DNA of 64,000 nucleotides from an uncultured Candidatus Saccharibacteria bacterium (GTDB taxonomy: Bacteria; Patescibacteriota; Doudnabacteria; UBA920), in the NCBI GenBank assembly GCA_964532425.1, contig CAZHIA010000001.1, positions 270,846-334,845 of the forward strand, in the 5' to 3' direction. A program made the position numbers and the translations under genes. Below are positions 2,593 through 57,929 of the stretch, one piece after another. The notes below the pieces were generated by a model, which was not told the DNA's origin, did not search any database, and saw nothing but the letters and a program-made list of their open reading frames with translations. The first letter of the stretch is position 1. Every line of letters begins with the position of its first letter.

Positions 2593-4194
2593 ATGTCAGA
2601 GTACACGCTGGAAGAGCTTCAAGAGCTTGCCCTGCCGGCTCTGCGGCATGCGGAGCTGGTTACATTGGCAGGCAATCAGAGTCCCACCAGGACATACGAA
2701 CTTGCAATTGCGAAATGGCCTCGCCGACAGGCGAAGGCCGCGCGGTATCTGGCGATGCTGCGTACGCGTTTTGGACAGAAGGCATATAAAGCCTTCATAG
2801 CTTCTGTAGAGCACGTTCGGCCGCAAGGCACAGAGCACGCTCAAGGAGAGGAAAAGATGAGTAAGACAGTACAGAGCCGTCCGCCGGAGTTTTTGTATCC
2901 GACAATGCGGCAGTTTCCGTTCGATGAAGTTTGCGAGCAGATCGTTCGCGAACTTGAAAAACGTAACTGGAAAGTTCCTGGTGTTGAAACCGAGTTCAGT
3001 GAATACGGTTCCGGCGACCAGAAGTACCGCCATGTTCAGCAGATTAGCGGAGACGAGTTCAAACTGCATTTTTGTCGCAAGCAGCGAACCATGCCAGGCG
3101 GGCAGTGGAACGATGTTGCCGCCGTGACGCAGGTCAACATTCCCCGAGCAGAATTGCACGTCTACGAAGACGAGTCCGGGCCGACATTGTATTTGTATGC
3201 CGGCGACGACTGGGAACGCGACCGCGAAGGATTTGTCAGCGGTTCGAAGGTCAACAGCAAGCTGAACGGCAAGCCGCGCACCTATCTGAAGTACAAAGGC
3301 GCGTGGAGCAATCCGGCCAAATATATTTATCCAGGCCAGCGCCCTCCCTTGCTGGTCTCTGACAACGACCTCGGCCGCGAATATGATCCAGTTGTTAAGA
3401 TGGATGCGGTGGAATTGGCGCCGGGCTGTGTGGTCATCGATATCGAGTCCGAGCCGGTGCAGTTCAAAACGGCGGACGTCATGGACGGCTTCACCCGGTG
3501 GCTCCAAGACCACGTTCTAGCGCTCATCCTGTCCCATCCAATTGCCGAGACTGAACCGGAAACTATTCCGGCAGTTGTACCGTTTCCACAACTCACCATT
3601 CTGGGCGAGCTGTTCTGCTTCGGCGAATATCGCGATGCACAGCGGATCAAACAGGGCAAGGCCGACCCTTCCCAGCTGGAAGCGCACGAGCGCTACGGCA
3701 TGCAAGGGAACGGGTACCGGCTCGTACCCTTTGACGTTTCGGACGACGGAACTCTGCCCAAGATAGCCTACGAAGGCTTCTTGTGGTGCGGGATCGCCCC
3801 GGCGCACATTGTGGTTAGCCTGTCGGAACTGGAAGTGCCGGGTCACATGCGCTGGTCAGATCGTGACGGCTGCGTCATCCGTGTTCGGCCCAGGAGCGGC
3901 GATGGCATTTACATTGCCGACCATGGCGAGTACGAGCAGCGCCGCGCGGAGATCGAGGCATTTGCCTTTCAAACTGAACCGGAACGGACTCGGCTGACTG
4001 GTACCGAGGTCGCGGAATTTATCCGCGCCCGCGGCCGGACCATTGTTCCCATCACGGAGTATAAAGGCGGCTTCAGCAAGCCGGTCGTACTCATTTGCCG
4101 GGAGCTGGGGTTCGACGAAGTCGAGATTGTGGAAGGGCCATGGTTTGACGGGTTGCTAGTGAAAGGAGCGTCTTCACATGATGCTCAGGGATAA
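2593..4194 (+). CDS. large hypothetical protein (533 aa). A possible internal start at 2857 (MSKTVQ..., GGAGAGG RBS) suggests two fused or coupled ORFs.
   Basis: Long GC-rich ORF with no stop from 2593. No motif I can assign. The antisense ORF 2596..3513 is a shadow. Confidence 0.5.
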   Translation: MSEYTLEELQELALPALRHAELVTLAGNQSPTRTYELAIAKWPRRQAKAARYLAMLRTRFGQKAYKAFIASVEHVRPQGTEHAQGEEKMSKTVQSRPPEFLYPTMRQFPFDEVCEQIVRELEKRNWKVPGVETEFSEYGSGDQKYRHVQQISGDEFKLHFCRKQRTMPGGQWNDVAAVTQVNIPRAELHVYEDESGPTLYLYAGDDWERDREGFVSGSKVNSKLNGKPRTYLKYKGAWSNPAKYIYPGQRPPLLVSDNDLGREYDPVVKMDAVELAPGCVVIDIESEPVQFKTADVMDGFTRWLQDHVLALILSHPIAETEPETIPAVVPFPQLTILGELFCFGEYRDAQRIKQGKADPSQLEAHERYGMQGNGYRLVPFDVSDDGTLPKIAYEGFLWCGIAPAHIVVSLSELEVPGHMRWSDRDGCVIRVRPRSGDGIYIADHGEYEQRRAEIEAFAFQTEPERTRLTGTEVAEFIRARGRTIVPITEYKGGFSKPVVLICRELGFDEVEIVEGPWFDGLLVKGASSHDAQG

Positions 4195-8990: not shown

Positions 8991-9120
8991 ATGGGTATTA
9001 TACCATACTAGACGTGCCGTCCTCTCATTTTTTACCGACAGTCATGCCAATAAACTAATAGAAAGATTAAAGATAGAAAAATAGAAAGATTTGAACTGGC
9101 AACTAACATATCCTCAAATG

Positions 9121-10738: not shown

Positions 10739-11506
10739 ATGGACTGGTTGGTTAATTGGTCCGTGCTTTTGGTGTTCGGAACCATCGGCTTTTGGGTGGC
10801 TACTGTCGTTGTTGTCACCATCATCGCGCCGTGCGTAATCTTCGACCGGAAGAAGTATACCGGCAGGATTGCGACTATCGCACTGCTCGCGTACCTTACT
10901 GCGCTGGCTTTGATGGGCGGCCCAAACGTTTTCAAGCTCGCACTTCACTACTGGTACCTGGTGCCGGTGGTCGTCGTAGTGCACTTTTTCGCAGGGCGAT
11001 ATTACGCGATCTATGTCCAGTGGAAGCTGCGCCTTTCAGAGCTGAGCGGCCGCTTGGAAGAAGAGATTCGCAAGTTCCTTCGCGAACGCAAGATCGAGGG
11101 TGATGCCATTCCGGCGGATCTGGCAGAAGAATGGCAGCGGCATCTGTCCCGGGTAGACCCTCCCATCGACATTGAACCGGATCCGGATAACTACAAGTAC
11201 GACATCTACTTCTGGATCGGATTTTGGCCGTTAAGCGCGGCGTGGACGCTTTTGAGGGATCCGCTGACACGCGCCGTAAAGCACCTGTACCGCATCTCGT
11301 ATCAACAGATGAAGAAAATGTCTGCCGACGAGTTTGCGAAGGCGAAGCAGAATCTTCCGCCTGCGCCACCGTCTCCGCCTGCGGGCTCATCGAAAAACGG
11401 TCCTGAACCTTCGGGGGGCAGGCCGTATGATCCGGACAATTTAGTCCAGAAGAAGCCGCGCCGCCCTGCGGATACAGGGTCGGGCGAGTTCGTAATCAGC
11501 CGGTAA
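10739..11506 (+). CDS. membrane hypothetical protein (start moved to MDWLVNW after the AGGAGG RBS; ORF track 10691..11506)
   Basis: CAGGAGGCTGT ATG context. Several TM helices. Pro-rich C-terminus. Confidence 0.55.
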   Translation: MDWLVNWSVLLVFGTIGFWVATVVVVTIIAPCVIFDRKKYTGRIATIALLAYLTALALMGGPNVFKLALHYWYLVPVVVVVHFFAGRYYAIYVQWKLRLSELSGRLEEEIRKFLRERKIEGDAIPADLAEEWQRHLSRVDPPIDIEPDPDNYKYDIYFWIGFWPLSAAWTLLRDPLTRAVKHLYRISYQQMKKMSADEFAKAKQNLPPAPPSPPAGSSKNGPEPSGGRPYDPDNLVQKKPRRPADTGSGEFVISR

Positions 11507-11510
11507 GTAA

Positions 11511-11555
11511 AAACCGCGTTCACCGTTTCGGTGGGCGCGGTTCCTTTTATTTTTA
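11511..11555 (+). terminator. rho-independent terminator
   Basis: AACCGCGTTCACCG-tttc-GGTGGGCGCGGTT followed by CCTTTTATTTTT. Confidence 0.6.
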
Positions 11556-11623
11556 ACGATAATATCACCTATACTATATTCTATAAATTCTATAATTCTA
11601 CATATAATACATAACATATTTTG

Positions 11624-11667
11624 CACACATTCCATTTTTGTCCGGTCGGACAAAAATGGAATGTGTG
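11624..11667. repeat. 44 bp hairpin palindrome CACACATTCCATTTTTGTCCG-GT-CGGACAAAAATGGAATGTGTG (P2 family)
   Basis: Perfect 21 bp stem. The same core (ATTCCATTTTTGTCCGGTCGGACAAAAATGGAAT) recurs at 29984..30037 and 30685..30718. Confidence 0.8.
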
Positions 11668-11712
11668 GGTGATACGGGTAAAAGATTAGAATGAGGAGTT
11701 AAAGAGGAGAGG

Positions 11713-12267
11713 TTATTTGTATCTGAACAACAGTTCTTCCAAAACAGCCTGATACTGTTTCCTTATGGATTCATCGTGGCCCACTTCGAGTACTTCATCG
11801 TTGAGGTTGGTAGCGGACGAAGTCCAGTTAAAGGAACCGGAGGCATAAGCCTTGTCCGTGACGATAGCCTTTAAGTGCATAATAGCCGCATGATCCTGGA
11901 GAACCACGGGAATACCGGCTTTGCGCAAACTGTCGATGATGTCCTTTTGTGAATCGAGTTGTTGGTACTGGGACCGGTCGGAGACGCCGCGGACATCCAG
12001 GCCGCGGTACTTGGCTGCCAGGAGAGCGTCGCGGATATCGGTGCGGGTAAAGGTATAGATGGCAAAGTAGACATACTTGTCCGCATCCTGCGTCAGCTGA
12101 ATGACCTCGCGGTTGAGCTGGTGCTGCTGGTTGTAATAAACTTTTATCTCGCGCTCATGCGCCGGCTTGTATTTGTAATCGTACAAAACCTGGCCGCATA
12201 AACCTAATAGCAGAATGATTACTACTATATAGAGTATGTCGCGCTTGAATTTCATAATAAAATCCAA
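11713..12267 (-). CDS. phospholipase D-like (HKD motif) family protein, Nuc-like endonuclease, membrane-anchored
   Basis: HLKAIVTDKAYASGSFNWTSSA matches HxK(x4)D(x6)GSxN. N-terminal TM. The true start may be the ATG at 12255 (MKFKRD), because codon 12267 is TTG. Confidence 0.75.
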   Translation of the reverse strand: MDFIMKFKRDILYIVVIILLLGLCGQVLYDYKYKPAHEREIKVYYNQQHQLNREVIQLTQDADKYVYFAIYTFTRTDIRDALLAAKYRGLDVRGVSDRSQYQQLDSQKDIIDSLRKAGIPVVLQDHAAIMHLKAIVTDKAYASGSFNWTSSATNLNDEVLEVGHDESIRKQYQAVLEELLFRYK

Positions 12268-12300
12268 ATTTCAAATTCCAAATTTCAAATCAATGACAAA
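12268..12300. repeat. left AT-rich inverted repeat flanking the four-helix-bundle gene
   Basis: aaatccaaatttcaaattccaaatttcaaatcaa is the reverse complement of the 12668..12712 segment (shared caaattccaaatttcaaatcaa). Confidence 0.6.
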
Positions 12301-12312
12301 ATGACCAATGCA

Positions 12313-12663
12313 TCAATTACGGCTTTTTGAAATAATCGTTGAAAATATTAGTACCAACTCGTGGGATTCTTTCCACAGTTGCCTGCATTCTGTTGCTCTG
12401 TCAGGGTTTGCGGTTGCTATCATCCGTGACCAGTGCATAGTCTCTTTGGCTTCCTTTTTGCAAATTCCGAGTTTATGGACAAAATCCTTTCTAGATTCGG
12501 CACCATCTGCTTCCATGTAATTAGCGCCGATGCTTGTGCTTGCTCTAATGAGCTGGCTGATAAGTGGTTTATTAATAGTAGAATCCAAAAGAGTGCGCGC
12601 GAAAATAATACTTTGCTCGCCCAACTTGGCTGTTCTTTCCTGCAAATCAAATGTCACTGTCAT
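12313..12663 (-). CDS. four-helix-bundle protein (23S rRNA intervening-sequence protein family, TIGR02436-like)
   Basis: Characteristic ...LIRASTSIGANYMEADGAESRKDFVHKLGICKKEAKETMHWSRM... motifs. 116 aa. Confidence 0.8.
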   Translation of the reverse strand: MTVTFDLQERTAKLGEQSIIFARTLLDSTINKPLISQLIRASTSIGANYMEADGAESRKDFVHKLGICKKEAKETMHWSRMIATANPDRATECRQLWKESHELVLIFSTIISKSRN

Positions 12664-12667
12664 ATTG

Positions 12668-12712
12668 GGATTTTGAATTTGATTTGAAATTTGGAATTTG
12701 ATATTTGAAATT
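12668..12712. repeat. right AT-rich inverted repeat flanking the four-helix-bundle gene
   Basis: tgggattttgaatttgatttgaaatttggaatttgatatttgaaatt; its reverse complement matches the left repeat. Confidence 0.6.
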
Positions 12713-12715
12713 AGT

Positions 12716-13147
12716 TTACGTAAACTTCCTAATTTCCTTCTCCGTCTCCCGTTTCTTTATATATTCCCGCTTGTCTGTCTTTTTGCGGGAGCGGCCCATG
12801 CCGATCCGCAATTTCAAAAGACCCCGTCCGGTTTGAAGGATCTCGAGCGGTACGAGGATCAGGCCTTTTTGTCTGCCGATGAGCTGGTCTATCTCTTTCT
12901 TATTGAGCAGTAAATTCCTGGTTTGGGTCGGGTTATAGCCTGGTTGGCGGGCATACGGATAGGGACCGATGTGGCAATTGATCAGTGTTGCGGAGTTGGG
13001 AGAGATGGTTACATAACTGCCGGCCAGCGAGACATTGCCACTTTTGGCAGCTTTAACCTCGGCGCCTGTCAGGACCATGCCTGCCACGAACGTCTCCTGA
13101 ATGTCATAGTCATACCGCGCTCGGCTGTTGTGTGCGAGAGTTTTCAT
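12716..13147 (-). CDS. smpB: SsrA-binding protein SmpB
   Basis: ARYDYDIQETFVAGMVLTGAEVKAAKSGNVSLAGSYV... is the canonical SmpB N-terminus. Basic C-terminal tail. Confidence 0.9.
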   Translation of the reverse strand: MKTLAHNSRARYDYDIQETFVAGMVLTGAEVKAAKSGNVSLAGSYVTISPNSATLINCHIGPYPYARQPGYNPTQTRNLLLNKKEIDQLIGRQKGLILVPLEILQTGRGLLKLRIGMGRSRKKTDKREYIKKRETEKEIRKFT

Positions 13148-13186
13148 AACCGTATTGTACCATGTGTTATACTATGTGTGGAATCC

Positions 13187-13222
13187 AACGTTAATCATCC
13201 GCGGCCGCGGATGATTAACGTT
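13187..13222. repeat. 36 bp palindrome AACGTTAATCATCCGCGGCCGCGGATGATTAACGTT (P1 family, NotI core)
   Basis: Perfect palindrome immediately upstream of the wHTH-Cas2-like gene. Relatives at 13786 and 22331. Confidence 0.8.
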
Positions 13223-13249
13223 GTAGACAATTTTATTAAGCTTTTTTAT

Positions 13250-13786
13250 ATGCCAGCTAAGAAAAGCGATTATATGTTGGAGGCTCTGGAGGTGCTATTT
13301 AACATCGGCAGCGAAATGATTCGATCCCTACCGCTACCGCTTGAAACGCCATACGAACATCTCCGTCGCGTGAGAAGTCTTCCGTATAAGACATACTATG
13401 ATTCCATGCACCAGCTCCACAAACGGGGTGTGGTTCGCATTTCGAAAAAGGATGACCGGTATTTTATAGAGTTAACACAGAAAGGCGCTTTGGAGATGCT
13501 GATGGAAAAGGCGGGGATGGATCATCAGGGAGCGTGGGACGGCAAATGGCGTTTGATTATTTTTGATATTCCGGAGAAGGCTCACTTGCAGCGCGATCGG
13601 CTGCGCTGGCTACTTAAAAAGAACGGCTTTATTAAACTACAAGCCAGCGTATTTATAAACCCATACCCGTTCAACCGTCAGGCGATAGCGTATTTGGAGG
13701 AAACCGGGCTGAATAAATATATTCGCATCCTTCGTGTGGACGATATGGGCGATGATAAAATCCTAAAAAAGAAGTTTAACCTGTAA
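13250..13786 (+). CDS. winged-HTH + Cas2-like (PaaX_C-type) protein, putative transcriptional regulator (paralog 1)
   Basis: N-terminal wHTH-like region. The C-terminal region WDGKWRLIIFDIPEKAHLQRDRLRWLLKKNGFIKLQASVFINPY matches the Cas2/VapD beta-alpha-beta pattern (vvvYDi..R.r..k.L..yG.rvQ.SVf.c). The ORF-track N-extension to 12923 overlaps smpB and is rejected. Confidence 0.6.
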   Translation: MPAKKSDYMLEALEVLFNIGSEMIRSLPLPLETPYEHLRRVRSLPYKTYYDSMHQLHKRGVVRISKKDDRYFIELTQKGALEMLMEKAGMDHQGAWDGKWRLIIFDIPEKAHLQRDRLRWLLKKNGFIKLQASVFINPYPFNRQAIAYLEETGLNKYIRILRVDDMGDDKILKKKFNL

Positions 13787-13821
13787 ACGTTGATCGTTCG
13801 CGGCCGCGAACGATTAACGTT
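13786..13821. repeat. 36 bp palindrome AACGTTGATCGTTCGCGGCCGCGAACGATTAACGTT (P1 family)
   Basis: Overlaps the stop codon of the wHTH-Cas2-like gene. Confidence 0.8.
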
Positions 13822-13887
13822 GTGGCATTTTGGATGGTTATTGTGTGTTCTGTCCGGGTTAATTTTTGCTGAGTTCTTGGTTTTAGG

Positions 13888-13920
13888 TTCACTGGTGAAA
13901 CAGGAAGATATTATGCTATA
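13888..13920 (+). promoter_or_regulatory. extended -10 promoter (TGCTATAAT) for argS, with a very short leader
   Basis: tgctataat lies 15 nt upstream of the argS ATG. Confidence 0.45.
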
Positions 13921-13934
13921 ATAACAGGGCATTT

Positions 13935-15740
13935 ATGAAAAGTGAAACACCCAAAAATCTCATCAGCCACTTGCTTTCGAGCGCGCTGGCTAATCTTGAA
14001 TTGACTCCGCACGCAGAGCGGGTCGAACTTACCGTACCCGATCCCAGATTCGGGGATTATTCAACGAACGTAGCCATGCTCCTGGCTAAGCATTTGAAGA
14101 TATCACCGCCGCAGGTCGCGAGTCAGATCATCGAAGAAATTATAAAGATCGACCAGGGCAAGATATTGTCTTCCTGCGAAGCGGCTGGAGGGTTTATTAA
14201 TTTCCGATTGTCGACTTCGCTTTTACTCCAACAACTTTCTGCTATTTTGGAGCAGGGTGATCTGTATGGCTGCAGTATGACGGGCGAAGGTAAAACAGTT
14301 CTTGTTGAATATTTTGCGAACAATGTGGCCAAGCCGCCGCATGTCGGACATTTGCGGAGTGCTGTCATTGGCGATTGCCTATACCGTATTTTAAAGAGCC
14401 AGGGCTATAAAACCATTTCCGATACGCATATCGGCGATTGGGGCGTACAGTTCGGTATACTTTTGTTTGCATATAAGGAGTACATCAAGAACGGCGGCAG
14501 CCGGGAAGTCATTGAGGCTGATCCGATCCAGGAACTGAACAAGCTGTATGTGGCCATGTCGGCGCGCATTGACCAGAATGCATCCTTGCGCGAACTTGGG
14601 AAGGAAGAATTCGTCAGACTGGAAAAAGGCGATGAGGAGAACCGCCAGCTCTGGGAGTGGTTCGTTAAGGTCTCTCTGGAGGATTTTGAACGTTACCGCC
14701 AGCTGCTCGATGTGTTGCCATTCGATCATAATCTGGGTGAGAGTTTTTATGAAGACAAAATGCCGGGTATTATTGAGGATCTGAAAGCCAAAGGTTTGCT
14801 GGTAGAATCCCAGGGTGCCCAGATCGTGAATTTGGAAGACAAAGGTCTCGGTGTGGCTATCGTCATCAAGTCCGACGGTGGTACTACGTATTTGCTGCGG
14901 GACCTTGCTACTGTTAAACACCGCTTGAATGAATTTAAGATCGCGAAGGCGCTCTATGTAGTAGACAACCGGCAGAGCCACCATTTTGACCAGGTGTTCG
15001 AGATCGCTCGCAGGGCCGGGTATTTAACTGAAGGGAATGATATTTGCACCCACGTGGACTTTGGCTTTATGAGCCTGCCGGAAGGCGCGATCTCGACCCG
15101 CAAGGGCACAACGGTGAGCCTGCAGAATTTGGTAGATGAAGCTCAAAAGCGGGCGCTGGAAATTATCCAACAAAAGAATCCGGAACTGGAAAATAAGGAA
15201 GCTGTGGCAAAACTGGTTGCACTTTCGGCCATCAAATACTTTGATTTGTCGCATAACCGCAAGACCGAGATCGTCTTCACCTGGGATAAGGCACTGTCAT
15301 TTGAAGGCAATACCGGGCCGTACTTGCAGTACACGCATGCAAGGATACATGGGATATTGAGGAAATCATATATTATTGGGCGTCATCTTGAGGGAGTGCA
15401 TCCGACCGAAGGATCTCAGGCAGAGATTCTTCATTCCTCGGTTGCACTCGGAATTCAGAATGACGCCGGGTTGAACGAACAGGAGCTTGCCGTTCTTCGC
15501 AAACTCGTCAAATTCCCCGAAACAGTCAAACAGGTCAGCGATGATTATTTGCCGAACCAACTTTGCAACTATCTGTTCGAACTTTCGCAGGTATTCAATC
15601 ATTTCTATGAAGAGTGTCCCGTACTTCAGGAACCGGATGCGACGAAAAAGCATTTCCGGCTGCAGCTTATCCAAGCTACGGCGCAGGTGATTGCGAACGG
15701 GCTGTATTTGCTCGGGATCGAGGCGCCGGAAGAAATGTAG
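13935..15740 (+). CDS. argS: arginine--tRNA ligase
   Basis: 601 aa. Class I HIGH-type motif PHVGHLRS. N-terminal Arg-tRNA-binding domain and C-terminal DALR anticodon-binding region (LCNYLFELSQVFNHFYEE). Confidence 0.95.
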   Translation: MKSETPKNLISHLLSSALANLELTPHAERVELTVPDPRFGDYSTNVAMLLAKHLKISPPQVASQIIEEIIKIDQGKILSSCEAAGGFINFRLSTSLLLQQLSAILEQGDLYGCSMTGEGKTVLVEYFANNVAKPPHVGHLRSAVIGDCLYRILKSQGYKTISDTHIGDWGVQFGILLFAYKEYIKNGGSREVIEADPIQELNKLYVAMSARIDQNASLRELGKEEFVRLEKGDEENRQLWEWFVKVSLEDFERYRQLLDVLPFDHNLGESFYEDKMPGIIEDLKAKGLLVESQGAQIVNLEDKGLGVAIVIKSDGGTTYLLRDLATVKHRLNEFKIAKALYVVDNRQSHHFDQVFEIARRAGYLTEGNDICTHVDFGFMSLPEGAISTRKGTTVSLQNLVDEAQKRALEIIQQKNPELENKEAVAKLVALSAIKYFDLSHNRKTEIVFTWDKALSFEGNTGPYLQYTHARIHGILRKSYIIGRHLEGVHPTEGSQAEILHSSVALGIQNDAGLNEQELAVLRKLVKFPETVKQVSDDYLPNQLCNYLFELSQVFNHFYEECPVLQEPDATKKHFRLQLIQATAQVIANGLYLLGIEAPEEM

Positions 15741-19100: not shown

Positions 19101-19362
19101 ACTGAAAGCGGAAGGGTATGCCCGCGAACTGGAGCGGAGCGTTCAGGACCTGCGCAAGCGCAGCGGGCTGAAAGTGGGTGAATTAGTCGACGTCTATTAC
19201 AACACTCAGGAAGAATCTCTGGAGGAGCCACTGCTTAACCTGTTCGACCGCAAGAAGACTTACGTGAGCCAGATCTCCAAGAGTCTGGAAGTAGAAGCCG
19301 ACTTTGAAACTCAGGCCGACATTGACGGCAAGGGGATATGGCTGGGAATCGTGAAAATATAG
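16180..19362 (+). CDS. ileS: isoleucine--tRNA ligase
   Basis: 1060 aa. HIGH (PHYGHIL) and KMSKS present. It carries two low-complexity insertions, including an ATTACGG x3 microsatellite at 17697..17720. Confidence 0.95.
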   Translation: MSEEKPQSTAPNFDQLEQEVLKFWDENHIFEKSLEQTKHGTPYIFYDGPPFATGLPHYGHILGSAVKDAFGRYQTMKGHFVRRRWGWDCHGLPIENIVEQNLKISGKKQIEEVGVERFNRICRENVLRFAEEWGKMVRRMGRWVDFQNSYKTMDTTYMESVWWGLKQIWDKGLIYEDRKVLLYCSRCETPISNFEVAMDNSYRDVTEESVFAKFKMLPRQRIVNDLTNDKTYALAWTTTPWTLPGNTSLNIGPDITYVMVEMDSGERYILAKDRLSVLSEPYELVSEYPARSLEGLMYEPLYPGVIRDPNNRAHKIYQASFVTTTDGTGIVHNAAMYGEEDYQLAKEKGLPRVDMLDHKGQYLEMAPEHLRGVFFKDADKIILKELKEKGLVYKTMAYRHSYPHCYRCGTPLFYNALPAWFINIQQVKPRLRQLNNQEINWYPAHLKEGRFDKSMESAPDWNISRNRYWATALPFWKCDTKECGNVTCVGSVAELKEKATNFSQIYPNYGLRITDSGATGSVAELDLHRPYIDQVVLKCGKCGGEMHRIPEVVDCWVESASMPFAELHFPFENNADRNAEQSLMSTAAADGSLNDMNLSGIMGGSDVAPTTPADVQHHSASDSAPFRGVEDFQHRFPADFVAEYIAQTRAWFYVMHVVSTVIFDHAPFRNVVTTGTVLAEDGSKMSKSKNNFPDPWLLIEKFGIDAVRFYLLSSPVMNADDLNFAEKSVQEVNRKVSLLLYNSLTFLRLYTSGKFEDVKPESSNVLDRWVLARLGQTKREVTQQMDGYNTVKACRAVVDFVNDLSTWYLRRSRDRMKAETEEGKVALSTLAYALAETAKLLAPVMPFLADYIYRDVTGKESVHLAQWPAQTEHVDETLLKAMEAVREIVSVGLNARKELKLPVRQPLQSLAYSVKDGAVEVADSMYVQLILDELNVKQLNPQLLDQHTRPATAKIFTGTNLVSQFYLDTALTPELKAEGYARELERSVQDLRKRSGLKVGELVDVYYNTQEESLEEPLLNLFDRKKTYVSQISKSLEVEADFETQADIDGKGIWLGIVKI

Positions 19363-19480
19363 TAATCTCGAATATAACGAATACAGCGCAAATATACTTA
19401 TGCTGCTGGCCGTTCTTATCAACAAAGGATGGTGTGCGGTATTCGTATATTTGTGCTTGATTTGTATATTAGAGAATACT
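19363..19480. repeat. roughly 120 bp MITE-like intergenic element, copy A (terminal inverted repeats GTAATCTCGAATATAACG / CGTATATTAGAGAATAC)
   Basis: About 88% identical to 27667..27790. It begins at the ileS stop codon (TAGTAATCTCG...) and ends just before the recO start. Confidence 0.75.
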
Positions 19481-19484
19481 ACTT

Positions 19485-22215: not shown

Positions 22216-22283
22216 CAGGGATAGTGCTGAGTGAATAGCGAATAGTGAATAGTCGAAAGTGAAAAGTTATCAAGTTGAAAGAA

Positions 22284-22312
22284 AATCCCGAAGCATGCGC
22301 TTCGGGGTTTTA
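22284..22312 (+). terminator. rho-independent terminator
   Basis: AAATCCCGAAGC-atgc-GCTTCGGGGTTTTAAT. Confidence 0.7.
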
Positions 22313-22330: not shown

Positions 22331-22366
22331 AACGTTGATCGTTCGCGGCCGCGAACGATCAACGTT
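22331..22366. repeat. 36 bp perfect palindrome AACGTTGATCGTTCGCGGCCGCGAACGATCAACGTT (P1 family)
   Basis: Identical in architecture to the palindromes flanking the 13250 gene. Confidence 0.85.
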
Positions 22367-23043: not shown

Positions 23044-23055
23044 TGGTTATATGTT

Positions 23056-23657
23056 GTAGGGACAGGTCGCGACCTGTCCGTACAGGGAACAGCTATGTTT
23101 CAAAGAAAAGCCAATCGTTTGCAAGAATACGATTATTCCCAGCCGGGGTATTACTTTATTACCCAGTGCGTACAAGATCGGAGATGTTGTTTGGGAGCGG
23201 TGGTCGGTGGGGAGATGGTGTTGAATGAATACGGGAAGATCGTGCAGCGACAATGGCAATGGTTGGCCGAACATTTTCCAAATGTACAATTAGATGAATT
23301 TCAGATCATGCCCAACCACGTGCATGGGATTGTGATCATAACCCCGGCGGGAAACGGCCAGGGTGGTGTGTTTGTAGGGGACGGTCGCGACCGTCCCGTA
23401 CAGAAACCGCTTCCCGATTTAATCGGCGCATTTAAAACCACATCGTCAAAACTGATCCACCGTGCAGGTTTTACCGATTTCTCTTGGCACCGGTCCTTCT
23501 ACGACCACGTCATCCGCAAAGACGAATCGTTAGACAAAGTAAGGGAGTACATTCGTAACAATCCCAAGCAGTGGGAATTGGATGAGGAGAACCCAATCAA
23601 TATAAAGAAAAGTTAAATACCCCCTGTAGGGACAGGCATTGCCTGCCCTCCATACAG
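23056..23657 (+). mobile_element. IS200-like RAYT element: REP-associated tyrosine transposase gene flanked by, and interrupted by, cognate REP palindromes
   Basis: REP copies at 23056..23085 (GTAGGGACAGGTCGCGACCTGTCCGTACAG), 23374..23403 (inside the ORF) and 23626..23657 surround the HUH transposase ORF. Confidence 0.7.
23095..23616 (+). CDS. REP-associated tyrosine transposase (RAYT, IS200/IS605 TnpA-like Y1 HUH transposase)
   Basis: HUH motif MPNHVHGIVII and the C-terminal catalytic-Tyr region SFYDHVIRKDESLDKVREYIRNNPKQWE. A roughly 14 aa insertion (GQGGVFVGDGRDRPVQKP) is encoded by an in-frame REP copy. Confidence 0.75.
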   Translation: MFQRKANRLQEYDYSQPGYYFITQCVQDRRCCLGAVVGGEMVLNEYGKIVQRQWQWLAEHFPNVQLDEFQIMPNHVHGIVIITPAGNGQGGVFVGDGRDRPVQKPLPDLIGAFKTTSSKLIHRAGFTDFSWHRSFYDHVIRKDESLDKVREYIRNNPKQWELDEENPINIKKS

Positions 23658-25485: not shown

Positions 25486-27666
25486 ATGGATCTCAGTAGT
25501 TTGAACGACAAACAGTATGAAGCGGTGACGGCCCCTCTCGGGCCGGTTTTGATCTTGGCCGGGGCAGGCAGCGGCAAGACCCGCGCTCTGGCCTACCGCA
25601 TTGCGTTTTTGTGCCATGAGCATTTAGCCGAACCCGAGCATATTTTGGCTTTAACCTTTACCAACAAAGCGGCCAAAGAGATGGCCGACCGCGTCCAAAG
25701 GATCCTGCAGGACAATCCGTGCAGCGTGCCATATATGGGTACATTCCATTCCATCTGTGCGCGCATCCTGCGGCAGGAGATTATAAAGCTCGGCTACACT
25801 AAAGGATTCACTATTTACGATAGCGATGACCAGGCCAGGGTTGTCCGAGAGATTATCCAGGAGCTGCATATCGACAAACGGTATGGCCCCAGCTTTTTCC
25901 GGGCCATGATCTCGAGCGCAAAAAACATCCTGCAGGCACCCTCGGAACTCCAGATCGGTCTGGACCCGGATACGCACAACTTGGTCCGCGAAGTGTATGT
26001 GCGCTACCAGGATTACCTGTTCCACCAGAACGCGGTGGATTTTGACGACCTGCTCATGCTCACCGTGAAGGTCTTCCAAAATTTCCCGGAGGTTCTCGAA
26101 AAGTACCGCGACCTGTTCCGTTATATCTTGGTCGACGAATATCAGGACACCAACCATGCCCAGTATGTCTTTTTATATCTCCTTGCCGAAAAAACCCATA
26201 ACCTGTTCGTAGTCGGCGATGATGCACAGAGCATTTACGGTTTCCGCGGTAGCAACATCCGAAATATTTTGAATTTCGAGCAGGATTTCCCCGAATGCAA
26301 GGTCATTAAGCTGGAACAGAACTACCGCAGTTCCAAGAATATTTTAGCCGTGGCCCAGAAGGTTATTGAGTTGAACGCCGAACAAAAACCTAAAACGCTG
26401 TGGACGCAAAATGACGAAGGTCCCAAGGTGGAACTGGTCGAATGCGAGGATGAGACAGGCGAGGCCGAGCTGATCGCAAAGAAGATCATCAAAATATCCA
26501 CACTGAAAAACGCGGATGCGGAAACTGATAAACACGGATCAGGTGAACTCGAGTATGAGCCAGAGGAGAAACCTGCGGGCGGATTTTCCATTCTCGACCA
26601 TTTTTTGAAGAAAGCCCGTACCCAGAATAAAAAAGGCGGCCCGCAATTTCCCTCGTTTCTGCCCCAGCTGCCGCGCGATCATGAGCCGCTCAGGCAGTTT
26701 GCCGTGCTATTTCGCACTCACGCTCAATCTCGCGTGCTGGAAGAAATTTTCATCCAGTCAGCCATTCCATACCAGATCATCGGGGGAGTGCGGTTCTATG
26801 AACGCAAAGAGATTAAAGATGTTATAGCCTACTTGCGCCTGGCCATGAACTATCGCGACTTGGTCTCGTTAAAGCGCGTACTGAACGAACCTGCCCGGGG
26901 TATTGGCGAGCGCAGCTATCTGCTCATTAAAGATGCAGTCATGGCCGAAAGCGTGGCTGCGAAGACGGGGAGCCGCGAGCCGCTGCCCCTGGACCGGTTT
27001 GCTGCAAAACTGAAAGACATCAAGTTTGGGCCGAAGATCGCCGCAGCAGTGGATAATTTTTTCCTGTTGCTGGGCCGAATAGCCAGTTTGGACGCTGCGG
27101 AAAACTTGGGCGCGCTCATGCGGCTCGTTATTAAGCGAACCGGCTATGAGGAGTGGGTGCGCGACGGGACCGAGACGGGCGAGGCGCGTTGGGAGAACGT
27201 GGAAGAATTGCTGACCGTGGCGGAAAAGTTCGGTGGCCGGCCATGGAAGGAAGGTCTTGAAGCGTTTTTGGAAGAGGTGGCGCTCATTACGGAGATCGAA
27301 GAGTCGCAGGAAGAACGTGACTGCGTGACACTTATGACTCTGCATTCTGCTAAAGGCTTGGAATTCGATACAGTCTTTTTAATAGGTCTTGAAGAGGGTG
27401 TGCTGCCGCATTCGCGCAGCTTGATGGAGCCGGCTGAGCTCTCCGAGGAGATTCGCCTCGCATACGTGGGGCTGACGCGCGCCCGGAAGAATTTGGTTTT
27501 GACGTATGCCCGCCGCAGGCGCGCGTTTGGCAGCCTGCAATACAACCAGCCGTCGCGCATACTGCGGGTCCTACCGCGCGATAGAGTGAATTTTAAAGGC
27601 TCGTCATATGGCTCTCCGTTCGAGCAGGAAGAAGGGGAGAATACGTATGAAGAACTGGAGTTTTAA
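25486..27666 (+). CDS. pcrA: ATP-dependent DNA helicase, UvrD/PcrA/Rep superfamily 1
   Basis: Walker A AGAGSGKTRAL. Motifs II (ILVDEYQDTN), IV, V and VI (VGLTRARKNLVLTY). Confidence 0.9.
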   Translation: MDLSSLNDKQYEAVTAPLGPVLILAGAGSGKTRALAYRIAFLCHEHLAEPEHILALTFTNKAAKEMADRVQRILQDNPCSVPYMGTFHSICARILRQEIIKLGYTKGFTIYDSDDQARVVREIIQELHIDKRYGPSFFRAMISSAKNILQAPSELQIGLDPDTHNLVREVYVRYQDYLFHQNAVDFDDLLMLTVKVFQNFPEVLEKYRDLFRYILVDEYQDTNHAQYVFLYLLAEKTHNLFVVGDDAQSIYGFRGSNIRNILNFEQDFPECKVIKLEQNYRSSKNILAVAQKVIELNAEQKPKTLWTQNDEGPKVELVECEDETGEAELIAKKIIKISTLKNADAETDKHGSGELEYEPEEKPAGGFSILDHFLKKARTQNKKGGPQFPSFLPQLPRDHEPLRQFAVLFRTHAQSRVLEEIFIQSAIPYQIIGGVRFYERKEIKDVIAYLRLAMNYRDLVSLKRVLNEPARGIGERSYLLIKDAVMAESVAAKTGSREPLPLDRFAAKLKDIKFGPKIAAAVDNFFLLLGRIASLDAAENLGALMRLVIKRTGYEEWVRDGTETGEARWENVEELLTVAEKFGGRPWKEGLEAFLEEVALITEIEESQEERDCVTLMTLHSAKGLEFDTVFLIGLEEGVLPHSRSLMEPAELSEEIRLAYVGLTRARKNLVLTYARRRRAFGSLQYNQPSRILRVLPRDRVNFKGSSYGSPFEQEEGENTYEELEF

Positions 27667-27790
27667 TAGTAATCTCGAATATAACGAATATAGCGCAAAA
27701 TATGCGAATGGCTATTGGCCGTTCCAAGTAACAAAGGACGGTGTGCGGTATTCGGATATTTGTGCTTGATTCGTATATTAGAGATTACTC
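27667..27790. repeat. roughly 120 bp MITE-like intergenic element, copy B
   Basis: Begins TAGTAATCTCGAATATAACGAATATAGCGC right after the helicase stop and ends ...CGTATATTAGAGATTAC. About 88% identical to 19363..19480. Confidence 0.75.
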
Positions 27791-27802
27791 CTTGATACAT
27801 AT

Positions 27803-29934: not shown

Positions 29935-29965
29935 CAAAACCGGTACTAGCCGGTTTTATTTTATA
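29935..29965 (+). terminator. rho-independent terminator
   Basis: AAACCGGTACTAGCCGGTTT followed by TATTTTAT. Confidence 0.65.
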
Positions 29966-29983: not shown

Positions 29984-30037
29984 CATGCGACATATTCCAT
30001 TTTTGTCCGGTCGGACAAAAATGGAATATGTCGCATG
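29984..30037. repeat. 54 bp perfect hairpin palindrome CATGCGACATATTCCATTTTTGTCCGGTCGGACAAAAATGGAATATGTCGCATG (P2 family)
   Basis: Immediately upstream of wHTH-Cas2-like paralog 2. Confidence 0.85.
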
Positions 30038-30091: not shown

Positions 30092-30649
30092 ATGGCAAGG
30101 AAACACAAGCGGAACAGTAAGGAGGTCAAATTGACAGTCGCTGGGCATATACTAATATATTTGCTAGTAGGAATAGATTTGTTGCCCCGGCCGTTTGAAC
30201 ATAAAACCGCCTACGTCAAAAGAATTTTTAAAGGACAAGTCGCTTACTCGGCCTATTGGTCAGCCGTACAGCGCCTTGAGCGGCTTGGTTTAGTGATTGA
30301 AAAAGAAGACGATAATGGAAATATTGTATTCGCATTGACTGAGAAGGGGAGACTCGAAGCTTTATTTGAGAAAGCGAAGATTCAGAAGCAGGAACCGTGG
30401 GATGGAAAATGGAGATTGATGATCTTTGATATTCCTGAAAAGGCCCGCCATCAGCGCAGATTATTGCGCTATTTATTGAGAAAGAATCAATTTGTTAAAT
30501 TGCAAGAAAGTGTCTTTATTAGCCCTTACGCTCTGAATGTTGAAGCGATTGCGTATTTAAAAGAAACTGGCTTGAATGTATATATTCGTCTGCTTCGCGT
30601 AGACCAAATGGATGATGATAAGGACCTTTGTAAGAAGTTTGGTTTATGA
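30092..30649 (+). CDS. winged-HTH + Cas2-like (PaaX_C-type) protein, putative transcriptional regulator (paralog 2)
   Basis: About 45-50% identity to the 13250 protein across the C-terminal half (WDGKWRLMIFDIPEKARHQRRLLRYLLRKNQFVKLQESVFISPY...AIAYLKETGLNVYIRLLRVDQMDDD). Confidence 0.6.
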   Translation: MARKHKRNSKEVKLTVAGHILIYLLVGIDLLPRPFEHKTAYVKRIFKGQVAYSAYWSAVQRLERLGLVIEKEDDNGNIVFALTEKGRLEALFEKAKIQKQEPWDGKWRLMIFDIPEKARHQRRLLRYLLRKNQFVKLQESVFISPYALNVEAIAYLKETGLNVYIRLLRVDQMDDDKDLCKKFGL

Positions 30650-30684: not shown

Positions 30685-30718
30685 ATTCCATTTTTGTCCG
30701 GTCGGACAAAAATGGAAT
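30685..30718. repeat. P2-family hairpin palindrome ATTCCATTTTTGTCCGGTCGGACAAAAATGGAAT
   Basis: Directly downstream of paralog 2; same core as the repeats at 11624 and 29984. Confidence 0.8.
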
Positions 30719-44151: not shown

Positions 44152-45354
44152 ATGAATAAAAAGGCAATAGCGATTTTGGGGGCGATTTTTCTTTTGATTG
44201 TGGGAACGCTTGGTTTTTTGATTTTTTCCAAGTCATCCTCCAAAAACAATACTGGCAATAACCAGTTAGAGCCGCCCCAAACGCAGGCGAACAACCAGAA
44301 CCAGAATCCGATTCCGAACCCGCCGCCCTCCCAGGTGAATACCTCAACACCTCCGGTTGCAACGAGTACACCCCCCATCACGAATCCTAATCCGCAGACT
44401 CAGCGTACTCCGGTCAAGTTGACCGAGGAAACCGTAGTCTCTCCAGCTTTGTTCTATGATGGGAGTGCCGTAGCTTATTTCGGCACGCAAGGGAGTTTGT
44501 ACCAGGCCGTGTTGGACCAAACAGGAGACACTATTACGCTGAGCCGCAAACATACCATTGATATTCCGGCGAAGTCTAATATTTCGCGCATTCTATGGCC
44601 GAAGAAAGGCAGTGACCTGATTGCAGAGTTCGTCAATAGTGGCAAGAAAACTTGGAGTTATTTCAACAGCAAGACCGGGTCTTATACCGATCTGCCTTCA
44701 CAGATCTTTTCTTTGGACTGGATGCCGAGCGGGGATAAAATTCTGTACACATGGCTGGAAAATGGCAAGACTACTTTGAATATATCCGATCCCGATAGTA
44801 CTCATTGGCAGGGGGTCGCCGACATGTGGGAAAATGATGATGCCTTGAGCGTATCTCCCGACGGTTTGAACGTCTTATACTACCGTACGGCAAATCCGGC
44901 AGCTGACAATCCAATTTATATGGTATCCATAGACGGAAAGGTCTGGCGGACACTGGTGAAGACCGGATATAACTTTGGCGTCTCGTGGAGTCCTGATGGG
45001 CAAAAATTTATTTATTCCAAACGCGACCCATCCAACCAGAAGCCCGGGCTTTGGTACTATAATCTCGCTACGGGCGAAACCAAGAGCCTGAATGTGCCCG
45101 GCACGGCCGACAAGCTGGTTTGGGACAGCGCAAGCAAGTACGTCTATGCCGCTTCGCCAACCAGTGGGGACGTGCAAAACGGGCTCACTGTTGATACATT
45201 CAGCCGTATTGATACCGATACTTTGGAACAAAAGAATTATGACCTCGGCGGGGTGAACGTCGACTTCCGCGATATGTTCCTGAATCTTGCCGGCTCGGTC
45301 CTTTATTTCCGCAACGCACAGGATGGAGCGTTGTATTACCTCAATCTGAATTGA
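44152..45354 (+). CDS. secreted TolB-like beta-propeller (PD40 repeat) protein with an N/Q/P-rich linker
   Basis: Signal/TM anchor, then repeated motifs SPDG(x)K(x)Y... (VSPDGLNVLYYRT, WSPDGQKFIYSKRD). Confidence 0.45.
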   Translation: MNKKAIAILGAIFLLIVGTLGFLIFSKSSSKNNTGNNQLEPPQTQANNQNQNPIPNPPPSQVNTSTPPVATSTPPITNPNPQTQRTPVKLTEETVVSPALFYDGSAVAYFGTQGSLYQAVLDQTGDTITLSRKHTIDIPAKSNISRILWPKKGSDLIAEFVNSGKKTWSYFNSKTGSYTDLPSQIFSLDWMPSGDKILYTWLENGKTTLNISDPDSTHWQGVADMWENDDALSVSPDGLNVLYYRTANPAADNPIYMVSIDGKVWRTLVKTGYNFGVSWSPDGQKFIYSKRDPSNQKPGLWYYNLATGETKSLNVPGTADKLVWDSASKYVYAASPTSGDVQNGLTVDTFSRIDTDTLEQKNYDLGGVNVDFRDMFLNLAGSVLYFRNAQDGALYYLNLN

Positions 45355-45394
45355 CATCAGGGGTTCGGTATAGTAGGATTGAACAAAATTTAAA

Positions 45395-45484
45395 AAATTG
45401 ACAAAATTGACAAAATTAAACTGCAGATGCGGTTATACAATTTTGTCAATTTTGTACAATTATGTCATTTTTGTCAATTAATTT
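45395..45484. promoter_or_regulatory. AT-rich TTGACAAAA / TTTTGTCAA inverted-repeat array upstream of radA
   Basis: aaaaattgacaaaattgacaaaatt ... caattttgtcaattttgtacaattatgtcatttttgtcaatt. Confidence 0.45.
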
Positions 45485-46810
45485 ATGGCCAAAACGCAAA
45501 CAATTTTTGTCTGTTCGAGCTGCGGGTTCAGAACCCCTCGCTGGCAGGGGAAGTGCCCGAATTGCGGAGAATGGAACACATTGCAGGAACAGCGCACGAC
45601 TACAGGTCCGGTTCAAGGGGCCGGAAGACTGGCGGCATCGCCGGTCAGTCTTCAAGATGTCCAAGTGGGCGAACGCCAGCGGGTCTTAAGCGGTATGGGT
45701 GAGTATGATGAAGTAGTGGGTGGTGGTATGGTACCTGGCAGCCTTATTTTGCTTGGTGGCGATCCGGGGATTGGTAAATCTACGCTGGCCTTGCAATTGT
45801 CGCTTAAACTTCAGGGACGGGTGTTGTATGTTTCGGGGGAAGAATCGGTTCACCAGGTTAAATACCGGGCGGAACGCCTCAGTCCCGGCCAGCAGCTTTC
45901 GGTATTGGCGGAGACCGACTTGGAAGCCATTTTAGCGACCATTGAAGCATCGGCTCCGGAGGTGGTAATTGTTGATTCCATCCAGACTATGTACTCCGAA
46001 CAAGCGAGCGGTGTGGCAGGCGGTGTGGCCCAGGTTACGTATGGCGTTCAGCGCATTATGCGCCTAGCAAAACAGTTGCATATTACCTTCATAATTATTG
46101 GACATGTGACCAAGGAAGGATATCTGGCAGGCCCGAAGACTTTGGAGCATATGGTGGATACGGTTTTGTACCTTGAAGGGGAACGGTTCCAGAGTTTCCG
46201 CATTCTCCGCTGCGTGAAGAACCGTTTTGGGACTACGAACGAAGTGGGTGTGTTCGAAATGCAGCGGGAAGGCTTGATCGAGGTCGTCAATCCGTCCCAG
46301 CTGTTCTTGGGAGACAGTTCCATAAAGGCGAGTGGTAATGTTATTACTTCGGTTATGGAGGGGAGCCGCGCGTTGCTCCTCGAGATCCAGGCACTGACAA
46401 CGGTAACTAATTTCGGATACCCTAAGCGCACGACGGCTGGATTCGATAATAACCGGCTGCAGCTGCTCGCCGCTATTCTTTCTAAGCGGGCCGGCGTCAA
46501 TCTAAGTAATCAGGATATTTATATCAATGTAGTCGGAGGCATTAAAGTAGATGAGCCGAGTGCGGACCTGGCGGTAGCGATAGCCATTGTCTCGAGTATG
46601 AAGGATCTGGTACTGGATGGTACGGTGGTTATGGGTGAGCTGGGGCTTTCCGGTGAAGTTCGGTTCGTGCCGAATTTGGAGAAGCGCATCCGCGAGGCGG
46701 AAAAGCTTGGATTTACACGGATTATTTGCCCGCACGGTAAATTCTCAACTAAGGCAAAGGCGGAAATCGTGAAAGTCAGGACGTTGGCGGAAGCAGTCAG
46801 TCAATTATAA
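45485..46810 (+). CDS. radA: DNA repair protein RadA/Sms
   Basis: N-terminal C4 zinc finger CSSCGF...CPNCGEW. Walker A GDPGIGKST. KNRFG motif. Lon-protease-like C-domain. Confidence 0.92.
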   Translation: MAKTQTIFVCSSCGFRTPRWQGKCPNCGEWNTLQEQRTTTGPVQGAGRLAASPVSLQDVQVGERQRVLSGMGEYDEVVGGGMVPGSLILLGGDPGIGKSTLALQLSLKLQGRVLYVSGEESVHQVKYRAERLSPGQQLSVLAETDLEAILATIEASAPEVVIVDSIQTMYSEQASGVAGGVAQVTYGVQRIMRLAKQLHITFIIIGHVTKEGYLAGPKTLEHMVDTVLYLEGERFQSFRILRCVKNRFGTTNEVGVFEMQREGLIEVVNPSQLFLGDSSIKASGNVITSVMEGSRALLLEIQALTTVTNFGYPKRTTAGFDNNRLQLLAAILSKRAGVNLSNQDIYINVVGGIKVDEPSADLAVAIAIVSSMKDLVLDGTVVMGELGLSGEVRFVPNLEKRIREAEKLGFTRIICPHGKFSTKAKAEIVKVRTLAEAVSQL

Positions 46811-46825
46811 CTTTCGAATAAATGA

Positions 46826-46856
46826 AAACGGGACACCGATCGGTGTCCCGTTCTTT
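46826..46856 (+). terminator. rho-independent terminator
   Basis: AAACGGGACACCGATCGGTGTCCCGTTCTTT. Confidence 0.7.
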
Positions 46857-47381
46857 ACAAGCCTGAAAGCGCCTGGTGCGCAGGCTTCGGTCAAGTGCTG
46901 AGGATGCTGTGAATGAAATGGATATCCCGCGGGGTTGGGACGTCCCATGAGCGATATATATTCCGCTATTTCATTTCGGGTATCCTCGGCAATTGCTAAC
47001 TGATATGGGCGTAGCTGAGACTCTGCGGTCTGACCGGGGTGCGGTTCTTCTTTTCAGGTACAGCGACCTGAATCGTTTTTGTAAGCGCCGTTTGTCCCTT
47101 GGGAGGGGTGGGAAGGGTCTCTTCCGTCGGAAACGGCATTCCGCATCCGTGTACGCACCTGCCGGCACTGCGCGGCTGCCACATGAAACAGCAGAGTATG
47201 TACTTCACTCCTGTCTTTTCGGTTCTTGTCTGGTAGTGTTTTGCGATTTGTCGTAGTTTTTGTTGCGCCATATTCACCTGTAATAAAACTGGACACTGGA
47301 ACATTCCCAGAGATTATGCATCGCCCATGCCCCCTTTGGATTTGTAAGCATTATAATATGGATTGGTAAAGCCGGCAATAG

Positions 47382-57900: not shown

Positions 57901-57929
57901 GTAGGGGCGGGTTTGAAACCCGTCCCTAC
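57901..57929. repeat. REP-like hairpin GTAGGGGCGGGTTTGAAACCCGTCCCTAC
   Basis: Same family as 9219 and the RAYT-associated REPs. Confidence 0.6.

Follow-up and report, generated by a model that had tools for sequence, protein, structure and literature searches.

Small PaaX-family proteins of Patescibacteria bracketed by private palindromes: probable autoregulators

In a 64,000-nucleotide stretch of an uncultured Candidatus Saccharibacteria genome (GTDB Doudnabacteria, UBA920; GenBank assembly GCA_964532425.1, contig CAZHIA010000001.1, positions 270,846 to 334,845 of the forward strand; hereafter the window), the gene for a 178-residue protein, X1 (13250..13786, + strand), is enclosed by two copies of a long palindrome. 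X1 belongs to a family of ~175-residue proteins of Patescibacteria (Doudnabacteria and relatives), here called mini-PaaX, and the bracket of palindromes is a family-wide architecture. The arrangement is real and conserved, and it is best explained by a PaaX-family autoregulator with three unusual features, namely the bracket, perfect palindromes private to each member, and copying of the site as a unit. We give a probability of roughly 55% to the best-supported reading, in which each protein is an autorepressing PaaX-type dimer acting on its own predicted operators.

The X1 protein consists of a winged helix (approximately residues 30-90) and a Cas2-like domain (residues 95-170), and it stops at residue 178, directly after the latter. 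Residues 95-166 match Pfam PaaX_M (PF20803), the Cas2-like middle domain of PaaX, at E=6e-20 and 71.6 bits (cutoff 24). An AlphaFold model (pLDDT 78.5) likewise places a winged helix of H-H-H-E-E topology (residues 34-75) before a ferredoxin-like domain. The top structural match of the model in the PDB is E. coli PaaX (8a39), followed by Rv0674; Cas2 chains match its C-terminal half and the winged-helix protein F-93 its N-terminal half, while a profile search of PDB sequences also found the winged-helix protein AspA. These results bear out an earlier, sequence-only reading of this DNA, made by a model, which had proposed a winged helix joined to a Cas2-like fold. That reading further favored a PaaX_C-type regulator, which holds for the PaaX superfamily and fails for the domain: PaaX_C has no match in X1 at E<=1 in a Pfam profile search, and the matching domain is PaaX_M. 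The Pfam model of the PaaX N-terminus also found no match in X1, and the PaaX equivalog model TIGR02277 scored 42.9 bits against a cutoff of 264.55, in an alignment spanning residues 52-165.

Models of Cas2 itself align to X1 over the beta1-alpha1-beta2 motif only. Pfam CRISPR_Cas2 (PF09827) scores 19.4 bits, under its cutoff of 23.8, NCBIfam cas2 (TIGR01573) scores 27.0 bits, over its cutoff of 24.5, and the PADLOC Cas2 match (E=2e-7) spans only ~38 residues. The TIGR01573 score probably explains why some sources name homologues 'Cas2'. Neither cas1 nor a CRISPR array exists in the window, as had been stated before: no Cas1 match was found among 25 open reading frames (ORFs) scanned with Pfam, those of Cas1-like size included, and no CRISPR-like array in the 64 kb. 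Given these negatives and the winged-helix fusion of the PaaX superfamily, we rejected a CRISPR Cas2 identity for X1. One Cas2 feature is retained throughout: D106 of the FDIPE motif, aligned with the beta1 aspartate of Cas2 FDMP, is invariant in the family, and E. coli PaaX has SEGLD in place of FDIPE and has thus lost it.

Homologues share an MP(A/R)KK start with the ORF at 13250. A database protein (P0001, 191 aa) is identical to X1 across all 178 residues and carries 13 extra codons, which would put its start at 13211, inside the upstream palindrome; for this reason, and because the homologue alignment favors the ATG at 13250, we take it to be a mis-called start. A paralog, X2 (185 aa, 55% identical to X1), is encoded at 30092..30649 (+ strand). 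A third FDIP-like DNA match, at 44558, was discarded, as it sits in an unrelated PD40 beta-propeller protein.

Each of the two genes is bracketed by its own family of palindromes (given here without strand). Upstream of X1, between it and the divergent smpB, palindrome A1 (13187..13222) is a perfect 36-bp palindrome that extends to 38 bp at 13186-13223 and ends 27 nt ahead of the ATG; as single-stranded DNA it folds at -19.4 kcal/mol (z = -7.8). The downstream copy, A2 (13786..13821), overlaps the stop codon TAA (13784-13786) by 1 nt. Arm positions 6 and 8 are changed on both arms relative to A1, and position 12 on the left arm only, which gives one G:T imperfection. The claim that two perfect 36-bp palindromes flank the gene is therefore right about the flanking, and right about perfection for A1 and not for A2; their placement at the stop and ahead of the start, and a third copy at 22331, are as described earlier. 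That third copy, A3 (22331..22366), is a perfect orphan, 35/36 identical to A2 with unrelated flanks, and lies between a terminator hairpin (22282-22311) and the predicted leaderless promoter of a peptidase S51 gene (TTGCGA 22391-96, TATGCT 22414-19, ATG 22426, + strand), with its centre near -77. The family A pattern has exactly three matches in the window (GC content 50.7%) and none in 100 shuffles. X2 is bracketed in the same manner by a different family, B, with core ATTCCATTTTTGTCCG-GT-CGGACAAAAATGGAAT. Its upstream copy, B2 (29984..30037; 26-bp arms, GT centre), lies 54 nt ahead of the ATG and comes after a terminator-like hairpin at ~29937-29958, and its downstream copy, B3 (30685..30718), lies 35 nt past the stop codon. 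An orphan, B1 (11624..11667), is found between convergent genes, 46 nt past the stop of a PLD-like gene and following an intrinsic terminator at 11512-11542. The 34-nt core is identical in B1, B2 and B3, asymmetric CGGTCG centre included. The window thus holds two paralogs, X1 and X2, and a private palindrome family for each; either family consists of two flanking copies and an orphan. CGGCCG shows no depletion in the window of the kind left by restriction-site avoidance (34 observed, 24 expected).

The mini-PaaX family is large, with 3286 clusters at 50% identity reaching E<=1e-10. Homologues appear in databases as 'hypothetical', 'Cas2' or 'PaaX', and every one listed has a precomputed PF20803 match. 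We surveyed two independent collections, one of 73 loci from species-representative genomes plus the window and one of 80 metagenome loci. Of the 70 genes with full flanks in the former, 39 are bracketed by CGGCCG-type palindromes, 21 have one on a single side and 10 have none; for the 62 such genes in the latter, the numbers are 36, 18 and 8. Among 123 control ORFs from the metagenome loci, a single one has palindromes on both sides, 43 have one on one side, mostly as neighbours sharing the palindrome of an adjacent mini-PaaX gene, and 79 have none. With both collections pooled, 75/132 genes are bracketed and 114/132 have a palindrome on at least one side. In most genes of the genome loci the palindromes measure 30-58 bp and stand tens of nucleotides ahead of the ATG and at or just past the stop. 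The centre is CGGCCG in 93/132 long zero-loop palindromes from the genome loci and window, and a distant subfamily, 26-34% identical to X1, keeps the bracket with another centre, CGATCG (L157, L160, L161) or CTATAG (L159). Up to six paralogs occur per genome among the fetched loci. This family-wide bracket, the private character of the palindromes, and the symmetry kept at positions that differ between copies had all been missed in the sequence-only reading. A scan of metagenome contigs for the exact family A pattern found no match, and look-ups of the edge genes yielded nothing beyond short Logan contigs covering this region. In the searchable literature, we found no description of bracketed mini-PaaX genes, nothing joining Cas2 with PaaX, and nothing on palindromes in Patescibacteria; TTHA0973 proved to be a TetR-family protein and hence irrelevant.

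Several loci depart from the simple bracket. In L047 (4001-5117), two convergent paralogs, 31% identical, have a single palindrome between their stop codons. L027 (3783-5034) carries three identical copies of one 40-bp palindrome and a fourth with one base different, all within 1.3 kb around the gene. In the ortholog at L002 (3688-4012), ~280 bp of GC-rich sequence stand between the upstream palindrome (3688-3727) and the conserved start; this stretch resembles an insertion, although the annotation treats it as an N-terminal extension (P0011, 259 aa). The window itself contains a lone 26-bp palindrome, AACGGGACACCGATCGGTGTCCCGTT, at 46827-46852, directly after radA, with the CGATCG centre of the distant subfamily and no such gene nearby. 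It is followed by ~530 nt (46853-47381) with no ORF of 110 aa or more (overlapping ORFs reach 102 aa) and no Rfam or tRNA/tmRNA match.

The internal anatomy of the palindromes indicates which of their parts are shared and which are private. At arm positions 4-17, self-complementarity is 82-99%, with all four pair types at each position, compared to 26-49% when partners are shuffled. Its collapse at positions 19-20 sets the unit at ~2x18 bp. Each arm is made up of an inner box with core (positions 1-7, consensus TTCACGG), an A/T-rich linker (8-11) and an outer box (12-18). Upstream and downstream copies of the same gene are 95% identical in the inner box, 61% in the linker and 83% in the outer box. 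The corresponding values for paralogs within one genome are 70%, 46% and 33%, near the background of genes from different genomes (68%, 40% and 29%). The outer box is private to each paralog. Across 41 upstream/downstream pairs, 86 positions were changed on both arms with pairing kept, concentrated in the linker, and 76 were changed on one arm, largely where the upstream copy has been reshaped. Mismatches showed no bias toward G:T over A:C on the sense strand (12 vs 8 in downstream copies, 6 vs 7 in upstream ones). On the protein side, pairwise distance in the family is 69% for the winged-helix region and 40% for the Cas2-like domain, and variation in the inner box follows that of the Cas2-like domain (partial r = 0.16) and not that of the winged helix (0.01). 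The divergence of the winged helix, the covariation of the inner box with the Cas2-like domain, and a centre that follows subfamily together suggest that winged helices may read the outer boxes and that a Cas2-like dimer may sit on the centre.

A regulatory role is suggested by how the upstream copy relates to the gene's own promoter, as placed by the best sigma70-like predictions in 31 related loci with a good predicted promoter. Ten of these have the centre of the palindrome at -28/-27: a TTGACG -35 element is contributed by the core, and the arm runs at its end into a TATAAT box 5-7 nt ahead of the ATG, which predicts a leaderless mRNA. In 13 it lies at -20 to -18, inside the spacer of TTGACA-N17/18-TATACT, and in seven at +8 to +25; leader length is ~0 in six of these loci. 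A matching -10 element was found on the gene-facing side of the upstream copy in 11 cases, and in 0-3 cases on each of the other three sides. In the spacer class the upstream palindrome retains one outer box and symmetry over 9-11 bp; its downstream counterpart is long and perfect. An upstream copy cut to such short symmetry and still conserved fits duplex recognition by a repressor. The suggestion that the palindromes are operators for their own protein finds in silico support for the upstream copy, with its fixed positions inside the predicted promoter of related loci.

In the window, two candidate X1 promoters (13165..13242, + strand) can be read by analogy with the related loci. The first, with an extended -10 TGTTATACT (13165-13173), would put A1 at ~+6 to +42. 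The second, TTAACG (13215-20)-N16-TAAGCT (13237-42), 7 nt from the ATG, is weak, overlaps the right arm of A1 and would be leaderless. A leaderless promoter is also predicted for the divergent smpB (13154..13182, - strand; TCCACA-17-TACAAT, 6 nt to the ATG), with its -35 end 5 nt from A1. Predicted -10 boxes 5-7 nt ahead of the ATG for smpB, the peptidase S51 gene and several mini-PaaX genes suggest that leaderless mRNAs are frequent in these organisms.

The genes also appear to be stable residents. X1 has smpB, argS and the PLD-like gene as neighbours, with no paa genes nearby. The order PLD-smpB / X / argS is kept in two Doudnabacteria metagenome-assembled genomes, with neighbouring proteins 61-64% identical to those of the window, and X2-type genes precede a relative of the same ~1200-aa protein (X-p1220) in seven other loci. 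Mini-PaaX genes sit in tight gaps between co-directional genes (median gaps 105 and 85 nt). Orthologous cassettes in conserved positions nonetheless carry completely different outer boxes, so that protein and sites diverge jointly in place. Viral contigs yielded one distant match to the family; given this single match, and PADLOC matches to the Cas2 motif only, we set aside a phage or defence origin.

The downstream and orphan copies are harder to place. No enrichment of T-tracts follows the downstream copies, and a terminator scan of 11400-14000, which spans A1, A2 and B1, returned only the hairpin at 11512-11542. Together with the position of A1 between divergent gene starts, this led us to reject the palindromes as intrinsic terminators. 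The downstream copy was likewise dismissed as a promoter of the next gene, as it makes no promoter there and is present with a convergent next gene too. Upstream-downstream spacing (median 590 bp) shows no helical periodicity of the kind expected from DNA-loop phasing. Orphans are rare, with ~11 long ones in ~830 kb; of 10 inspected closely, nine occupy intergenic DNA and five have convergent genes on either side. They match the cognate downstream copy almost completely, linker included, and without any difference in L019 and L027, yet their flanks are unrelated. This near-identity despite unrelated flanks argues that the ~38-bp palindrome is copied as a discrete unit by some mechanism; the unrelated flanks also led us to reject segmental duplication as the origin of the orphans. 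Hybrids of the attL/attR type, left by site-specific integration, were excluded by logic, each copy being internally symmetric while the copies differ. The copied unit looks like the ~38-bp palindrome itself, not the cassette, a further point missed in the sequence-only reading.

In the reading we favor, each mini-PaaX dimer would bind the palindrome of 36-40 bp that belongs to it. The outer boxes (arm positions 12-18), which differ from paralog to paralog, would be recognised by the variable winged helices, and the conserved Cas2-like dimer would lie over the near-invariant centre (TTCACGG-CCGTGAA type, with the CGGCCG core). Because the upstream copy lies across the core promoter of its gene, binding there would repress the gene. 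E. coli PaaX behaves comparably at its own promoter, Px, which it represses by obstructing RNA polymerase; its 39-bp operator, TGATTC-N27-GAATCA, has half-sites set similarly far apart (PMC9493321). The downstream copy and the few orphans would be further binding sites, perhaps as an auxiliary operator for a ~590-bp loop, or as a roadblock or insulator between tightly packed genes. Linker symmetry may arise from template-switch correction of quasi-palindromes during replication, with no need for a hairpin. Quasi-palindromes are hotspots of replication template switching that perfects them (PMC7202029), so symmetric drift of the linker would be explicable without function.

A number of observations weigh against such an autorepressor. 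All promoters are predicted, and in the window their position is ambiguous, with A1 either at +6..+42 or on the -35 element and B2 apparently in the 5' leader. The downstream copy forms no promoter for the next gene and is present whatever the orientation of that gene, convergent included; the orphans occupy places that are unexpected for operators, between convergent genes or behind terminators; and a plain regulator model provides no means of copying the palindrome as a unit. The 86 compensated double differences fall at linker positions that would not be read, and go beyond what half-site recognition alone would explain. The correlation between winged helix and outer box is weak (partial r = 0.09, permutation p ~0.006). 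The invariance in mini-PaaX of the Cas2 beta1 aspartate, lost in E. coli PaaX, hints at a role beyond dimerisation. Finally, a regulator that lacks a sensor domain and has hardly any target but itself is an odd thing to keep at 2-6 copies per genome.

In the main rival reading, which we consider unlikely overall, X would be a structure- and sequence-specific nuclease or nickase that copies or maintains its private palindromes, as extruded hairpins or cruciforms, via its Cas2-like domain with the retained aspartate; this would be a REPtron-like system with a non-HUH protein. The gene would then lie between two copies as a RAYT lies between REPs, and the promoter overlap would be transposase-style autoregulation at an element end. 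A ~500-bp gene flanked by palindromes, with one palindrome family per paralog and divergent single-copy paralogs, comes close to RAYT/REPIN (PMC3337134). The compensated changes between two copies of the same gene (all 86 of them), orphans near-identical to the downstream copy in unrelated flanks and in 'safe' spots (between convergent genes or behind terminators), the three identical 40-bp palindromes and one-base variant within 1.3 kb in L027, the asymmetric centre common to all three B copies, and the invariant D106 of FDIPE, aligned to Cas2 FDMP and lost in PaaX, can all be read in the same direction. Against this stand the very low copy number (~11 long orphans in ~830 kb, one per family in the 64-kb window), the lack of an HUH or tyrosine motif, and mismatches with no strand bias between G:T and A:C. 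Many upstream copies, moreover, are degenerate, their symmetry being down to 9-11 bp and remodelled into -35 and -10 elements, and are conserved all the same, which fits duplex recognition. We know of no joining chemistry for Cas2-like folds, and a GC-rich centre disfavors spontaneous cruciform extrusion. In its most specific form, which we hold to be more doubtful still, mini-PaaX proteins would be non-HUH palindrome-handling enzymes related to Cas2, with winged helices on the outer boxes and a Cas2-like dimer, still equipped with the catalytic aspartate absent from PaaX, nicking or processing the CGGCCG centre of an extruded hairpin, keeping the arms symmetric and occasionally copying the ~38-bp unit to new intergenic sites. 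If true, they would be an analogue of the REPtron and a free-living relative of CRISPR's pairing of Cas2 with palindromic repeats.

The palindromes could alternatively act in RNA, as 5' and 3' stem-loops of the X mRNA that serve its stability, its termination or binding by its own protein. This we judge very improbable. The downstream copy is at the stop codon and hence transcribed, A1 and B2 in the window may closely follow -10-like boxes, the stems are very stable, and their symmetry covaries. However, the upstream copy occupies the -35 to -10 region in 23/31 loci, outside the transcript, and several of the mRNAs look leaderless; sense-strand mismatches have no G:U bias, downstream copies are followed by no enriched T-tract, and A3 lies between a terminator and a promoter. 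No Rfam family matches, with sub-threshold miRNA look-alikes only, and plain hairpins would not need an outer box that is common to both copies and private to the paralog. Least credible is the small mobile cassette proposed in the sequence-only reading, in which the gene and both palindromes transpose together with the palindromes as ends: the unit is compact (~635 bp) with similar structured ends, IS200-like, has up to six paralogs in one genome among the fetched loci and occupies tight co-directional gaps (medians again 105 and 85 nt), but it keeps the same PLD-smpB/X/argS position where neighbours are 61-64% identical and the X-p1220 pairing in seven further loci, its paralogs are ~55% identical with different palindromes where insertion-sequence copies would be near-identical, no target-site duplications or flank homology were found, and the family is nearly absent from viral contigs.

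Other features of the window are recorded here for completeness. A free-standing gene for a 23S rRNA intervening-sequence protein (PF05635; 12313-12663, - strand) lies between the PLD-like gene and smpB. An intergenic segment of ~125 nt occurs twice, at 19359-19484 and 27666-27793, with 87-97% identity and no Rfam match, filling the gaps between ileS and recO and between a UvrD-like helicase gene and a ksgA-type rRNA dimethylase gene; it could be a promoter or leader. At 45378-45480, just upstream of the radA-like gene (45485..46810), two opposed arrays of approximately four copies each of the 9-mers ATTGACAAA and CAATTTTGT resemble iterons or a cluster of binding sites.

The genomes of Patescibacteria are tiny, and few regulators can be recognised in them. 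With each member of mini-PaaX carrying its own long recognisable site on both sides, protein-DNA specificity can be read from genomes, and the family would be a natural set of orthogonal repressor/operator pairs, as predicted here. Explaining both the symmetry at drifting positions and the flank-free copying of 38 bp may lead to template-switch repair or to a new activity of the Cas2-like fold. The assignment also corrects a recurrent 'orphan Cas2' mis-annotation in lineages largely without CRISPR.

We also compared the arrangement to known systems. Like IS200/IS605 elements, it is a unit of ~0.6-0.7 kb that holds one small gene and, close to either end, sequence able to form a hairpin; it differs in having no Y1 transposase, copies that are not near-identical, conserved synteny, and ends that are perfect, mutually identical palindromes. 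The C-terminal half of X1 resembles Cas2 in its ferredoxin-like fold, the FD(I/M)P of beta1, the Q-SVF motif and the metal-binding aspartate. Unlike Cas2, it is fused to a winged helix, has no cas1 match or array in the window, and its 36-bp repeats enclose a gene, not a spacer.

The likeness to REPIN-RAYT systems is closer, with a short gene between palindromic repeats of its own, a separate repeat family for every paralog, several highly divergent paralogs per genome in stable single-copy residence, and extra copies in intergenic 3' positions (PMC3337134, PMC3116915). A RAYT, however, is an HUH-Y1 transposase, whereas mini-PaaX is PaaX/Cas2-like with no Y1_Tnp match. Its palindromes are perfect and zero-loop, lack a GTAG or CGTC tag, and number ~2-4 copies per family as opposed to tens to hundreds, and its upstream copy is built into the promoter. 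The window also contains a separate candidate of the conventional kind, a 173-aa ORF (23095-23616, + strand) with a Pfam Y1_Tnp match (E=1.2e-6; IS200/RAYT-like). Palindromes of the GTAGGG...CCCTAC type lie upstream of it (23055-23084), inside it (23373-23402) and at 57901-57929, and a repeat family is found at 9116, 9216, 23052 and 57004. This is probably a separate, conventional REP/RAYT system, in which one of the GTAGGG palindromes may disrupt the ORF.

The remaining comparison is with PaaX itself, which in E. coli and Pseudomonas represses phenylacetate catabolism. PaaX differs in its helical C-terminal effector domain for phenylacetyl-CoA, PaaX_C, which the window proteins lack, along with nearby paa genes; they also fall far under the TIGR02277 cutoff. 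Mini-PaaX in turn keeps the Cas2-type FDIPE and LQASVF motifs that PaaX has lost, and its site is an uninterrupted palindrome of 36 bp, near-perfect and with CGGCCG conserved at the centre, which brackets the gene and is private to each of several paralogs per genome. Both proteins combine a winged helix with the Cas2-like middle domain (PF20803) and have the AWDGKW motif in common. The inverted boxes of the PaaX operator, ~30 bp apart, match the wide spacing of the two outer boxes of each palindrome here, and the repression by PaaX of its own promoter (PMC9493321) may have its counterpart in the predicted overlap of palindrome and promoter.

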